The translations under genes and the position numbers were made by a program. DNA of 56,143 nt from Alphaproteobacteria bacterium (lineage in GTDB: Bacteria; Pseudomonadota; Alphaproteobacteria; UBA9219): assembly GCA_049697595.1 (NCBI GenBank), contig JBAVWC010000438.1:1-56143 (forward strand), read 5' to 3'. How positions within the stretch are numbered: the stretch's first letter is position 1; each line of letters starts with the position of its first letter. The notes under the pieces were generated by a model, which ran no database searches, was not told where the DNA came from, and saw only the letters and a program-made list of their open reading frames with translations. This document shows, piece by piece, positions 19,678 through 26,827 of the stretch.

Positions 19678-20427
19678 ATGACCGCATACTATAACGAATG
19701 GGAGCCATACCCAGCGCAATGGCTCCGCAACCTAATTAAAGCCGGATTGATCGCGCATGGCGATGTCGATGAACGCAGTATAAAGGATGTTAAAGCCGAT
19801 GACCTCAAAGGATATGCCCAATGCCACTTCTTCGCCGGGATCGGTGGATGGTCTTATGCTCTACGCCTTGCAGGATGGTCAGACGACAGCCCTGTTTGGA
19901 CAGGAAGCTGCCCATGTCAGCCCTACAGCATTGCCGGCAAAGAACTCGGACAAGAGGATGAACGCCATCTCTGGCCTTCCTATTGTGACCTCATCAAAGA
20001 GTGCAAGCCTTCAATCATCTTTGGAGAACAGGTTGTTGGAGCGATTAGTCATGGATGGCTCGACGATGTATGCGGCGACCTTGAAGGAGAAGGTTACGCC
20101 ACGGCGGCGGCGGTATTGCCAGCTTGTTGTGTCGGCGCAGAACATGAAAGAAAAAGGCTATGGTTCGTTGCCGACTCCGAACGCGAGGGACGGGAAAGAT
20201 TTGAGCACGACTACCGCGTATCTAGCAGCGCGAGGGAGGCATACGCCGAGTCTGGCCACCCATTTTTTATCGCTAGGCGTGCTGTGGCAAAAGATTTCTC
20301 ACATCTACGGCAGCGCGATGGGGTATCCGTCAGCGTGGAACGATCTTGCATCAAAGGATACGGCAACGCAATTGTCCCGCAAGTCGCGGCTCAATTCATA
20401 GAGGCTTTTATGGAGGTAAGACCATGA
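19678..20427 (+). CDS. DNA (cytosine-5) methyltransferase, frame-0 reading
   Basis: 249-aa ORF carrying motif I HFFAGIGG, IV SCPCQPYS, VI GEQV, VIII GAEHERKRLWFVA and X GYGNAIVPQVAAQFI. See the findings for the +1-frame anomaly between motifs VIII and X. Confidence 0.85.
   Translation: MTAYYNEWEPYPAQWLRNLIKAGLIAHGDVDERSIKDVKADDLKGYAQCHFFAGIGGWSYALRLAGWSDDSPVWTGSCPCQPYSIAGKELGQEDERHLWPSYCDLIKECKPSIIFGEQVVGAISHGWLDDVCGDLEGEGYATAAAVLPACCVGAEHERKRLWFVADSEREGRERFEHDYRVSSSAREAYAESGHPFFIARRAVAKDFSHLRQRDGVSVSVERSCIKGYGNAIVPQVAAQFIEAFMEVRP
19787..20401 (+). other. nested +1-frame ORF carrying the PTPxARDxK and MGYPxxW methyltransferase elements
   Basis: 204-codon open frame lying entirely inside the C5-MTase gene. 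LPTPNARDGKD is at 20168-20200 and MGYP at 20318-20329. Third-position-only differences from the paralog fall in this frame. Confidence 0.45.
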
Positions 20428-22522: not shown

Positions 22523-22758
22523 AACTAAACTGCATTGTCTCCAATAGCATCCCATCTGGCACTAAATTCGTGGCATTAACCTATGATGGCAGCCATGCAG
22601 GGGTTTACATGATTGACAAAGCCGGACACCTGATAAATTATGAAGGCGAGGACATTGAGAGTTCGCCGGATTGCTACCTGACTGGCAGCGGGTTCGGGTA
22701 TTGGATTGAGTTGCCAAAGAGTTTCAAAATGTGGTTTGAACAGAGGAAACCGAGATGA
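22513..22758 (+). CDS. hypothetical protein (81 aa)
   Basis: ORF track. Confidence 0.55.
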   Translation: MPMKLNCIVSNSIPSGTKFVALTYDGSHAGVYMIDKAGHLINYEGEDIESSPDCYLTGSGFGYWIELPKSFKMWFEQRKPR

Positions 22759-23042
22759 CAGAATGGCAACCGATAGAGACTGCGCCGAAAGATGGAACTG
22801 CTATCCATGCTCGGCGAGAAGAAGAAGGTTTTTGCAAGAAGCCAAACTTAATAAAATGGTGTGACGGAAAATGGGTAAGCACTCTTCGGCCAGAGATCGA
22901 AGTTACCAACCAACCGACACATTGGGAGCATGTCGATTATCTGCGAGAGTCCGTCTTTGGCTGGTTTGAAGATTATGGCTACAAGCTCCCCGACGAAAGA
23001 GTTTTTGACAACTTAATCGAGAGGATAAGAAATGCCGCTTAA
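22755..23042 (+). CDS. DUF551-domain protein
   Basis: ORF track. MTEWQPIETAPKDGT is the characteristic DUF551 start. Confidence 0.68.
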   Translation: MTEWQPIETAPKDGTAIHARREEEGFCKKPNLIKWCDGKWVSTLRPEIEVTNQPTHWEHVDYLRESVFGWFEDYGYKLPDERVFDNLIERIRNAA

Positions 23043-23779: not shown

Positions 23780-23968
23780 TTATCGGTCATGCTCTAGCTC
23801 CCATATTTTTCCTGATAACTGCTCGATGCAATCAGCCGCACTTTCCAGCAAACGAGCTTCGCCACTTCCGCTATCCAGTTTAAGCAAATGCGCCGCAAGG
23901 TTATTTAGCCCCTTGACAATATCTGCGTCAATTTTGGCTATTTTCGTCGTTACTGGTTTGTCGGTCAT
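23780..23968 (-). CDS. hypothetical protein (62 aa)
   Basis: ORF 23780..24058 trimmed to the ATG at 23966-23968 (ATGA overlap with the upstream MTase stop). Confidence 0.5.
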   Translation of the reverse strand: MTDKPVTTKIAKIDADIVKGLNNLAAHLLKLDSGSGEARLLESAADCIEQLSGKIWELEHDR

Positions 23969-24585
23969 ACTGCCCTCGGTTTCATAAAAACATACCAGTG
24001 AGTGAATCCTTGCCGTCCAGTTAGATGTCCGAAAAGCGGTTTGATGTCTGTCAGGCATAAAACCTCTTTGACTTTAATTTGAGTTTCGTTCCATTTGAAA
24101 ACCAAAGTGCCGTCTGCATCGAGAACTCGGAAGCATTCAGATAAACCTTTCTTGATGTCCTCTCGCCAATCGGCAGATAGTTTGCCATATTTCTTCGCAA
24201 GCCAACTCTTGTCGCCAGCCGTCTTTAGATGCGGCGGGTCGAACACGACTAGTTTGAAATGCCCATCAGGAAAGGGTATGTCTGTGAAGTCCATTAGAAT
24301 GTCTGGATGAATTTTCAGGCTGCGTCCGTCGCATAGGATGTGTTCTTCATCGCGGATGTCTCCAAAAACAACATCAGGATTCTTTCGGTCATTCCAGAAC
24401 ATTCTGCTTCCGCTGCAAGGGTCGAGGACTCGCCGTTTCGGCATCTTAGATTCCACCCTTGGCGTAGCTTCGCTGTTCCGTGCAGGCGCACAGCTTGAGT
24501 TCTCGCCTTGTAAGCCTCCTCCGGTAGCCGCCGCCGGAGTGCGAGATACGGTGGAATTATTCGTCGTTACTGATTTCTCACTCAT
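23965..24585 (-). CDS. amino-methyltransferase (N6-adenine or N4-cytosine type, DPPH motif)
   Basis: 206-aa ORF with motif I-like VLDPCSGS followed by motif IV VVFDPPH. The start ATG overlaps the stop of the C5-MTase (ATGA). Confidence 0.72.
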   Translation of the reverse strand: MSEKSVTTNNSTVSRTPAAATGGGLQGENSSCAPARNSEATPRVESKMPKRRVLDPCSGSRMFWNDRKNPDVVFGDIRDEEHILCDGRSLKIHPDILMDFTDIPFPDGHFKLVVFDPPHLKTAGDKSWLAKKYGKLSADWREDIKKGLSECFRVLDADGTLVFKWNETQIKVKEVLCLTDIKPLFGHLTGRQGFTHWYVFMKPRAV

Positions 24586-25223
24586 ATTAAATCTCCTTCT
24601 GCTTTGAGGATCGCTTCCCCGATGATCTGCGCGATTTGAGGAACGATGCTGTTTCCGAGAGACTTAAGGCGGTGTACTCGCAGGGGTATCCCATTAGCCA
24701 CTCGACCCACGTCGGGTTCAACGCCCCACCAGCGTGCGATGCGAGTGTCTTCGAGTTCCTTGCTAATTCTGCCGGAGAGTGTCCGTTGTCCTTCCAGTCC
24801 CTCGCGCATGGCGTTGGGTACATGTGAACTTGGTTTCTCAGTCTGCATCCGCTCGTCTGGCCGTTCTCTGTATATTTTAGCCAGCTCTCTTTGCTGCCTA
24901 TCCTTGCTGCATCCTCGACCGTTGGGGTTTGCCACGATCCAGACCCTATCTCTTTTGTGGGGAGCACCTGCCGCGGAAGCGGGGATACAATGCCATTCCG
25001 CATCATACCCGATCTCAGCGAGTGACCCGAGAACTTCTTCCAATCCGCGAGAGCGAAGGGCTGAGACGTTTTCGATGATGACGTAGTGCGGCTGCGCTTC
25101 TTTGATGATGCGGAGGTACTCGAACCAGAGGCCGCTTCGCTCCCCGGCAAGCCCTGCGCCTTTTCCCGCGAGGCTGATGTCTTGGCAGGGGAAGCCTCCG
25201 GCAATAACGCTGCTTTCCATCAA
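24582..25223 (-). CDS. DNA (cytosine-5) methyltransferase, motifs IV-X (lacks motif I in this frame)
   Basis: 213-codon ORF with motif [35 protein letters not shown] and [19 protein letters not shown] stop lies 4 codons upstream of its first TTG/ATG. Confidence 0.8.
24587..25204 (-). other. nested +1-frame ORF carrying [16 protein letters not shown] and [13 protein letters not shown] elements
   Basis: 205-codon open frame inside the C5-MTase gene, in the same relative (+1) frame as in the plus-strand paralog. PTP block is at 24788-24820 and MGYP at 24683-24694. Confidence 0.45.
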
Positions 25224-25383
25224 GTGTTGTTACGTCATCGTGGCAGGGAATATCCGGCCAGTGTTTCTTTAGAACGGCTTGGCAGAACGGTTCACGTTCG
25301 CAGAAAGCGACCGTTGTCATTCCCGCCGCTTCGAGGCCGAGCGAGAAGCCGCCTATGCCGGAGAATAGGTCAAGGACGCGCAT
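25015..25383 (-). CDS. C5-MTase N-terminal fragment (motif I), out of frame with the rest
   Basis: The ATG at 25381-25383 is preceded by SD-like [60 protein letters not shown] is MTase-like. After about 25225 the frame reads Arg/Pro-rich filler until the stop at 25015. Confidence 0.6.
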
Positions 25384-25957
25384 TTCTACGTTCCTTTCGC
25401 TTCTGTGCGGCTTGATAGTTGTACTGCGCGATAGGCCGCTTGCCGAGATGCGCCTTTGCGGTATTGAGAGAAATACCAGCCTCATTGAGCAAATCTTCTG
25501 TGCGCCACTCTTTCGACGGCAAAGGCCACCTGTCAGCAATCTTGTCTGCGGCTTCTTTCGTGAAGGCTTTTTTCTTATCGGCGGATATGCGGCCTCCAAT
25601 CTTTGCCGCGCCGGATGCCCTTGCCTCTTTCCAATGCTGCGTAATCAACTTGGCCGAGCATGTCGGAGGGTACACACCGCTTTCCAAAGACAGGATGCTT
25701 ATCTTTTTGCGGCGAATGTCAGGCAATAAGTCGCCCCACTCAGGATATGTTCTAGCAAGGACACCAAGACTGACGACCGCTAGCGTAATTTGTTCATTGC
25801 GACGTGTCGGGCGCAGGATTGCCGCCAAACCAGATTCGCCTTCGTACATCGGGATGGTGCTCCAATAGTCACCAAAATGTGTTGCGAAGGCATCGGCCTG
25901 ATACTGCGCCGTTCTCCAAGTTTTGTCTGAAATATAGGCTTTATGTGTCATTTTCAT
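25370..25957 (-). CDS. resolvase-like / HTH protein (possibly a degenerate serine recombinase)
   Basis: 195-aa [17 protein letters not shown]...[14 protein letters not shown] and the C-terminal GGR...[19 protein letters not shown] follow the order of resolvase catalytic-domain and HTH blocks, but several catalytic positions look substituted. First gene of the MTase operon. Confidence 0.45.
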
Positions 25958-25982
25958 ATTTTATGGTTGACGCACTCAGATT

Positions 25983-26029
25983 GTGCTTGACGAAGTGTAT
26001 ATCACGGGTTTATAAACAGTGTCAAGCAC
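25983..26029. promoter_or_regulatory. palindromic switch: interdigitated divergent promoters
   Basis: The inverted repeat GTGCTTGAC (25983-25991) / GTCAAGCAC (26021-26029) supplies a TTGAC -35 on each strand. Plus strand: TTGACG, 17 nt, TTATAA (26010-26015). Minus strand: TTGACA (26020-26025), 18 nt, TATACA (25996-26001). Confidence 0.5.
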
Positions 26030-26074
26030 GATGAGAAATAAAACTGAACCCTAACCCCAGAAACGGAGAATAAA

Positions 26075-26224
26075 ATGAATGACGAAAGAATGGCCGAACT
26101 GCGTGAGATGGCGAAACAGAGTCACCCATGTAGTCCTGATGAAACTTTGCGCCTAATCGCGGAGATTGAAATTCTTAAATTGAAGGTATGGCAACATGAA
26201 AATGGCCTACCTAAAGCTGTTTAA
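26075..26224 (+). CDS. hypothetical protein (49 aa)
   Basis: Hand translation: MNDERMAELREMAKQSHPCSPDETLRLIAEIEILKLKVWQHENGLPKAV. SD GGAG lies upstream. A junction-motif copy starts 28 nt before the ATG. Confidence 0.45.
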   Translation: MNDERMAELREMAKQSHPCSPDETLRLIAEIEILKLKVWQHENGLPKAV

Positions 26225-26348: not shown

Positions 26349-26425
26349 CTGAATGTAGCTCAGCTTGGTAGAGCATCGCGTTTGGGACGCGAGGGTCGTA
26401 GGTTCAAATCCTGCCATTCAGACCA
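26349..26425 (+). tRNA. tRNA-Pro (anticodon UGG), CCA encoded
   Basis: Hand-folded cloverleaf. Acceptor stem CTGAATG/CATTCAG, D arm GCTC-AGCTTGGTA-GAGC, anticodon arm TCGCG-TTTGGGA-CGCGA, variable loop GGGTC, T arm GTAGG-TTCAAAT-CCTGC, discriminator A, then CCA. G37 is as in Pro tRNAs. Confidence 0.9.
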
Positions 26426-26458
26426 ATTTAACCCCTAACCCCAGAATTGGACAAAAAA

Positions 26459-26827
26459 ATGAGTTTACCTTTCCTATATTTGATATTTTGTGTACTACCA
26501 TCGGCTGCTGGATGGGTTGGAACTTTTACAATTTTGGGGATCGTTACCCTCATCATTTTGGGAATCGCAATCGCCGTCATGAAATCGGTTGAATACGATG
26601 ATGACGATAAGAGGAAATCAGCCGCAGTTCTTTCCTACATGAAGAAACTTTCTGGTTTTGTCGTACTGTTAGCAATCCTTGATGTGTTTTTACCAGATCA
26701 AAGCCAGATTTACACGATTACTGGTGCCTACGCTGTGACCAACAACGCAGAGATAGCTAAACTGCCCGACAACATTCTCAAGGCTGCAAATGGTTATCTT
26801 GAGAAACTAAGCGCCAAGCAACCCTAA
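26459..26827 (+). CDS. membrane protein (122 aa)
   Basis: ORF 26447..26827 trimmed to the ATG at 26459. It has several hydrophobic segments and ends in KQP followed by a stop inside a junction motif. Confidence 0.6.
   Translation: MSLPFLYLIFCVLPSAAGWVGTFTILGIVTLIILGIAIAVMKSVEYDDDDKRKSAAVLSYMKKLSGFVVLLAILDVFLPDQSQIYTITGAYAVTNNAEIAKLPDNILKAANGYLEKLSAKQP

Follow-up and report, generated by a model that had tools for sequence, protein, structure and literature searches.

A recent 17-nt deletion separates motif I from motif IV in a phage-borne C5 methyltransferase gene that contains a nested +1 reading frame

Comparison with its relatives indicates that a C5 methyltransferase gene of the window (the whole 56,143-nt stretch of DNA analysed here) has most likely become a pseudogene recently, and that it is neither recoded nor an evolved split gene. 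The gene, referred to as alpha in the rest of the paper, extends from 25383 to 24582 on the minus strand, on which all positions below are read unless a plus strand is given. A previous sequence-only reading had labelled it a split or +1 recoded gene and had left three options for it, namely a +1 frameshift, a two-polypeptide enzyme or a decaying gene. That label found no support, as motifs I to IV are continuous in 80 of 80 viral relatives (the best 80 of 595); with a 17-nt deletion in the window and continuous relatives, the decaying gene is the option that stood, while the other two did not.

The alpha start codon (ATG 25383-25381) is preceded, with a 7-nt spacer, by the SD-like sequence AAGGAA (25391..25396), which was read directly in the sequence; AAGGA(A/G) precedes both the alpha start and the downstream gene. 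This ATG opens frame C, in which 58 genuine codons (25210..25383) containing motif I (FSGIGG), motif II (FCE) and motif III (DDVTTL) are followed by an out-of-frame tail of 64 Arg/Pro-rich codons and a stop at 25015 (25015..25209), read across alpha-coding DNA. Pfam profile PF00145 aligned over its positions 1-56 with frame-C residues 1-57 (E = 2e-10), and past residue 57 the Pfam profile search returned no family match for the frame-C product. Motif I conforms to the FxGxG pattern for AdoMet binding in C5 methyltransferases, and frame C aligns to M.HhaI from residue 12 on. Judging from these matches, motif I in frame C is genuine and no chance resemblance.

The remainder of alpha (24582..25208) lies in frame A, which is +1 relative to frame C, and contains motifs IV (GGFPCQ, within VIAGGFPCQ), VI (ENV), VIII (RDRVWIVA) and X (LGNSIVPQ), with a poorly conserved linker between motifs VIII and X. 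The frame-A ORF matched positions 63-177 of PF00145 (E = 6e-32), and motifs IV (PCQ with the catalytic Cys), VI (ENV) and VIII (RxR) are present and collinear with M.HhaI residues 12-170. Motifs I to X of the window gene are therefore not encoded in one uninterrupted frame with a complete large domain. Frame A has a TAA at 25232-25230, followed by CAA CAC TTG(25223) ATG(25220), and is then open to 24582; its letters read TAA(25232) CAA CAC TTG ATG GAA AGC AGC GTT ATT GCC GGA GGC TTC CCC TGC CAA. Neither the ATG at 25220 nor the TTG at 25223 is preceded by an SD-like sequence, and a promoter scan of 23800-26200 found no sigma-70-like site able to drive a separate C-terminal fragment. GenBank lists the 212-aa frame-A product that starts at ATG 25220 (MESSVIAGG…) as MGB9154397.1, 'MAG: DNA cytosine methyltransferase [Alphaproteobacteria bacterium]'. 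Most of what the sequence-only reading had described here was recovered: motif I lies in another frame than motif IV, with AAGGAA ahead of its ATG (by sequence and by PF00145), frame C runs into Arg/Pro-rich codons down to 25015, and the frame-A TAA stands four codons before the ATG. Motif IV had been placed about 10 codons on and out of frame; it is out of frame, but GGFPCQ begins 8 codons after DVTTL and 3 after the break. The switch had been assigned to an interval of about 20 nt; the break can be placed exactly at 25210|25209.

This position was obtained from DNA alignments A1 and A3, in which the window was compared with its four closest relatives, L089, L093, L095 and L096 (genes P0002, P0009, P0015 and P0003, respectively), which come from four different samples. 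All four read …GGAAAGCAG-TAC(A/C)ATGGAACAATTGA-CGTTAT… (DGKQ-YNGTID-VIAGG), while the window has …GGAAAGCAG|CGTTAT…, joined at 25209..25210. Between GGAAAGCA(G/A) and CGTTAT, the window thus lacks exactly the 17 nt TAC(A/C)ATGGAACAATTGA. The absent sequence, TACAATGGAACAATTGA, encodes YNGTI and the first two bases of an Asp codon. Position 25210 is the last base of CAG (Gln58), and 25209 is an orphan C left over from the third position of the deleted GAC (Asp) codon, so that six codons (YNGTID, minus one base) were removed between motif III and motif IV. The ends of the deletion show no microhomology (GCAG|TACA … TTGA|CGTT) and no homopolymer or repeat. The lost residues align with the M.HhaI segment just before ILCAGFPCQ, and they include the Asp kept ahead of (V/I)I-x-GGFPCQ in nearly all relatives. 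On the strength of these alignments, the frame change is a 17-nt deletion specific to the lineage of the window.

A scan of IMG/VR yielded 595 confirmed relatives, the best 80 of which were examined. Motifs I and IV share a single frame in all of these 80, and motif X is in that same frame wherever the search pattern found it. The distance from the motif I Phe to GGFPCQ ranges from 57 to 66 residues in the best 80 of the 595 and is most often 61; the window leaves space for only 55⅓ residues, and restoring the 17 nt brings the spacing to 61, the family mode. Closer relatives were found in a large protein database (P0002, P0003, P0004, P0009 and P0015). Their proteins carry HWPDIPCH(D/E/N) upstream and DGKQ-Y(N/H) at the deletion site, and residues 1-58 of P0002 are 100% identical to those of the window. 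Thus the comparison with orthologs that had been suggested along with the original reading revealed a continuous frame in the orthologs, one part of what that reading had named as evidence against itself. No near-identical DNA was found among GenBank phages, and GTDB representative genomes contained distant relatives only (36-44% identity). Neither JGI metagenome contigs nor IMG/VR contained a match to an exact-flank pattern allowing a gap of 0-30 nt, and therefore no undeleted sister allele was found there. In the GenBank phage record of the relative L001 (MW202733.1, 2441-2498), the annotated cytosine methyltransferase starts at an internal ATG and hence lacks motif I; the ORF is open upstream of that ATG and has motif I there in the same frame. 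The gene is located between two ORFs for DNA polymerase.

The same set of relatives bears on whether a programmed +1 ribosomal frameshift near 25210 could give a full-length alpha. Neither frame has a stop in their overlap of about 20 nt, and a shift of +1 there would connect motif I with motif IV, much as in prfB-type frameshifting, where the downstream frame is also +1 and the overlap is short. Yet the site is kept in 0 of the 80 viral relatives (best 80 of 595) and in 0 of the 4 closest ones, and ACA CTT GAT GGA AAG CAG CGT offers no in-frame stop, hungry codon or known slippery pattern, nor was a slippery or hungry codon or an in-frame stop present anywhere in 25229-25200. Local RNA folding was not significant (z = −0.75), and the product would still be six residues short, shorter than any of the best 80 of the 595 relatives. 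In contrast to prfB-type frameshifting, neither a stop or slippery codon nor a stimulator is present, and the shift site is not conserved in homologues. We thus rejected +1 recoding, which we consider extremely improbable, for its lack of conservation, of shift signals and of a significant RNA fold.

A functional split enzyme, in which a motif I-III fragment, a separately initiated fragment with motifs IV-VIII and X, and the nested ORF product beta described below would form an active non-covalent assembly, has precedents. M.AquI and M.EcoHK31I are natural two-polypeptide C5 methyltransferases, and complementation between inactive fragments has been described for M.SssI, M.HhaI and M.BspRI (PMC3404938, PMC2836561); moreover, an ATG and a TTG directly follow the frame-A stop and the downstream frames are intact. 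None of the relatives examined is split at this point, however, and the break removes six residues including the conserved Asp that starts the strand into motif IV, and leaves the N-terminal fragment with a 64-residue junk tail; the ATG at 25220 has no SD sequence, and no promoter-like site was found. Known productive splits fall between motif VIII and the target-recognition domain, and short N-terminal fragments of M.SssI gave no complementation (PMC3404938). M.AquI likewise forms a C5 methyltransferase from two polypeptides, but its two parts meet within the variable region, past motif VIII and ahead of motif IX (PMC3404938), whereas the break in the window falls after motif III and before motif IV, takes residues away and occurs in a single lineage; the M.AquI arrangement, a variable-region split with an own start for each part, is not the one seen here. 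We therefore regard a functional split enzyme as quite unlikely. Stated more fully, a tripartite C5 methyltransferase would consist of the motif I-III fragment binding AdoMet, a re-initiated IV-VIII/X fragment and the nested beta supplying target recognition and motif IX, assembled non-covalently. As a natural enzyme divided between motifs III and IV it would be without precedent; we hold it to be very improbable.

The possibility that the break is an assembly artefact or a minority variant, with the dominant phage genome carrying the 17 nt and an intact alpha, was addressed by means of two other assemblies. The window itself is one contig from a metagenome-assembled genome. Over 8621 nt, Logan contig SRR28002677_21391 matches it at 100% identity and has the same junction, as does ENA ERZ25039493 contig_137866, which differs from the window by one 1-nt indel at 22891; both contigs give the same 212-aa gene call. 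Since the identical junction occurs in three assemblies (which may share the same reads) from different pipelines (NCBI MAG, Logan and ENA), an assembler-specific error is unlikely, in agreement with the earlier judgement that poor sequence quality was an improbable cause. Furthermore, a clean 17-nt loss without homopolymer or repeat ends is atypical of a sequencing or de Bruijn graph error. On the other side, the indel in the ENA assembly shows that indel-level differences between assemblies do occur, and three assemblies derived from the same reads could share a minority or chimeric allele. Overall, we consider an artefact or minority variant unlikely. The indel itself falls inside the plus-strand ORF 22755-23042: a single T in the window and in the Logan contig corresponds to TT in the ENA assembly (L085). 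The extra T breaks this 95-aa ORF in that assembly, and the difference reflects either a variant or an indel error in one of the assemblies.

Pseudogenisation by the 17-nt deletion would proceed as follows. Loss of the YNGTID codons between motifs III and IV spared a single base of the Asp codon, its last, and shifted all downstream sequence by +1 with respect to the start codon. Translation that begins at ATG 25383 therefore yields a 122-aa product made of 58 genuine and 64 junk residues, and the rest of alpha has no ribosome-binding site of its own. Because of this junk-tailed product and of the remainder lacking a ribosome-binding site, the alpha subunit is most likely non-functional, that is, a recent pseudogene.

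The lesion is young. Over the 58 N-terminal codons, the window and L089 differ by 23 nt in 21 codons, of which 21 are synonymous and 0 non-synonymous, while the stretch from VIAGG to RVWIVA shows 14 synonymous and 6 non-synonymous codon differences. Downstream of the break, no stops occur either in frame A (213 codons) or in the nested frame B (205 codons). The deletion is dated as recent because all N-terminal differences are synonymous and because no further stops have accumulated downstream. By these codon comparisons, alpha was under purifying selection until recently and shows no further decay, which places it at a very early stage of pseudogenisation. An intact remainder and a perfectly intact nested beta ORF would also be expected if the locus were still in use, and C5 methyltransferases tolerate fragment complementation (PMC3404938), which makes residual fragment activity conceivable; both points weigh against the pseudogene. 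In pseudogenised phage and prophage methyltransferases, one small out-of-frame deletion likewise parts the AdoMet-binding N-terminus from the catalytic core, with continuous orthologues and an otherwise undecayed gene. Nothing essential distinguishes the window gene from these, except that it adds a genuine nested ORF and thereby has three motif-bearing frames.

This nested ORF, beta (24587..25006), lies wholly inside alpha (24582-25383) in its +1 frame, referred to as frame B. It codes for 139 aa from an ATGATG, is intact, and carries SWQTPT and motif IX. Beta matches PHROG families phrog_1008 and phrog_31772, both annotated 'DNA methyltransferase', and has 348 database homologues; gene callers sometimes pick beta instead of alpha. 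Nested beta ORFs with WPTP repeats and motif IX were observed across relatives L001, L003-L083, L089 and L097, and both the alpha and beta ORFs are annotated in Paenibacillus phage Leyra. Wherever the search pattern found motif IX (about 80% of loci), it lies in the +1 frame of alpha, exactly 65 nt before motif X.

Several features point to selection on beta. Among 58 non-redundant relatives, the +1 frame is free of stops between motifs VIII and X in 54, compared to 0 of 58 for the +2 frame, which averages 6.8 stops over the same interval. Mean pairwise identity in these 58 relatives is 0.40 for the +1 translation versus 0.32 for the alpha translation. The beta-start ATG, often ATGATG, falls within the GYDAE of alpha and is kept in 52 of the 58. 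Biased synonymous codons in alpha account for its retention, with TAT used in 70% of cases at GYDAE versus 28% elsewhere and GAT in 79% versus 41%. An alignment of 37 beta sequences was convincing, and motif IX is nearly invariant across it (consensus LNPxWVEWLMGFPxGWT). When the window pieces are concatenated, motif IX of beta and LGNSIVPQ of alpha are collinear with M.HhaI 273-315, the local score being weak alone. The beta profile had no meaningful match among PDB sequences, and an AlphaFold model of beta alone built with 52 homologues (pLDDT 64, pTM 0.27) was too poor for a fold search.

[quoted passage not shown] The WPTP-repeat region of beta is probably its target-recognition part, and the retention of the beta-start ATG through biased codons provides indirect evidence that both alpha and beta may be made and needed for activity. 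By the same comparisons, frames A and B, of the three motif-bearing frames, constitute a conserved and selected nested pair, and only the change from C to A is a mutation. The arrangement resembles that of M.EcoHK31I, whose beta is encoded in another frame inside alpha; in the window gene and its relatives, a +1 ORF wholly inside alpha has motif IX and alpha has motifs I-VIII and X (PMC2836561, PMC3404938). This likeness concerns the A/B frame pair, not the break between C and A, and rests on ORF arrangement and motif distribution. The two systems differ in that the target-recognition domain of M.EcoHK31I was placed in alpha (PMC2836561, PMC3404938), whereas here the WPTP-repeat region is in beta, and in that alpha is broken in the window.

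The phage-like contig carries two such nested alpha/beta methyltransferase genes. The second C5 methyltransferase (19678-20427, plus strand, 249 aa) is intact, with FAGIGG, SCPCQ, RKRLWFVA and GNAIVPQVA, and its nested +1 ORF (19787-20401, plus strand, 204 aa) contains LPTPNARDGKD and MGYPSAW and matches phrog_1008. Immediately downstream of alpha, a class-I SAM methyltransferase with a DPPH motif (23965..24585, minus strand; phrog_954, E = 1e-75) has a start that overlaps the alpha stop; GenBank annotates a shorter, 159-aa version of it. Loss of alpha may be tolerable owing to the intact second C5 methyltransferase and this third methyltransferase.

Upstream of alpha, a gene coding for 195 aa shares 93% nucleotide identity (window 25380-26058) with L086-L088, contigs of a related element from the GROS21 metagenomes. 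The homology ends at 25380, the last aligned base, at ATG 25383-25381, and in L086-L088 different genes follow there, including N6_N4 methyltransferase and Dam-family genes. The end of homology at this point identifies the methyltransferase as an exchangeable cassette and bears out ATG 25383-25381 as its true start. The upstream gene of L095 and L096 encodes a Resolvase domain. Further along, a tRNA-Pro (TGG) gene (26349-26425, plus strand) has a 30-nt direct repeat (CCCTAACCCCAGAA…AAAATGA) on either side. The two copies, 87% identical, lie about 270 nt upstream (26049-26078) and just downstream (26433-26462), and both terminate at a small ORF's ATG.

Taken by itself, the interruption of alpha would be an ordinary deletion that recently abolished the function of one among three methyltransferase genes, an enzyme of a known kind. 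Its 212-aa remnant, a 'DNA cytosine methyltransferase' according to GenBank, is best regarded as a pseudogene. The analysis separates this lineage-specific frameshift mutation (C to A) from a family-wide, selected nested +1 ORF (A/B). Two-polypeptide C5 methyltransferases, including M.EcoHK31I alpha/beta, are treated in the literature consulted as rare exceptions; a paper on Paenibacillus larvae phages lists two cytosine methyltransferase genes without comment, and beyond M.EcoHK31I our literature searches found no description of a nested methyltransferase arrangement. The nested arrangement is seen in essentially all of the approximately 80 viral relatives (the best 80 of 595) and again in the second C5 methyltransferase of the window, and it would be this nested ORF, more than the deletion, that is the more interesting biology of the locus.
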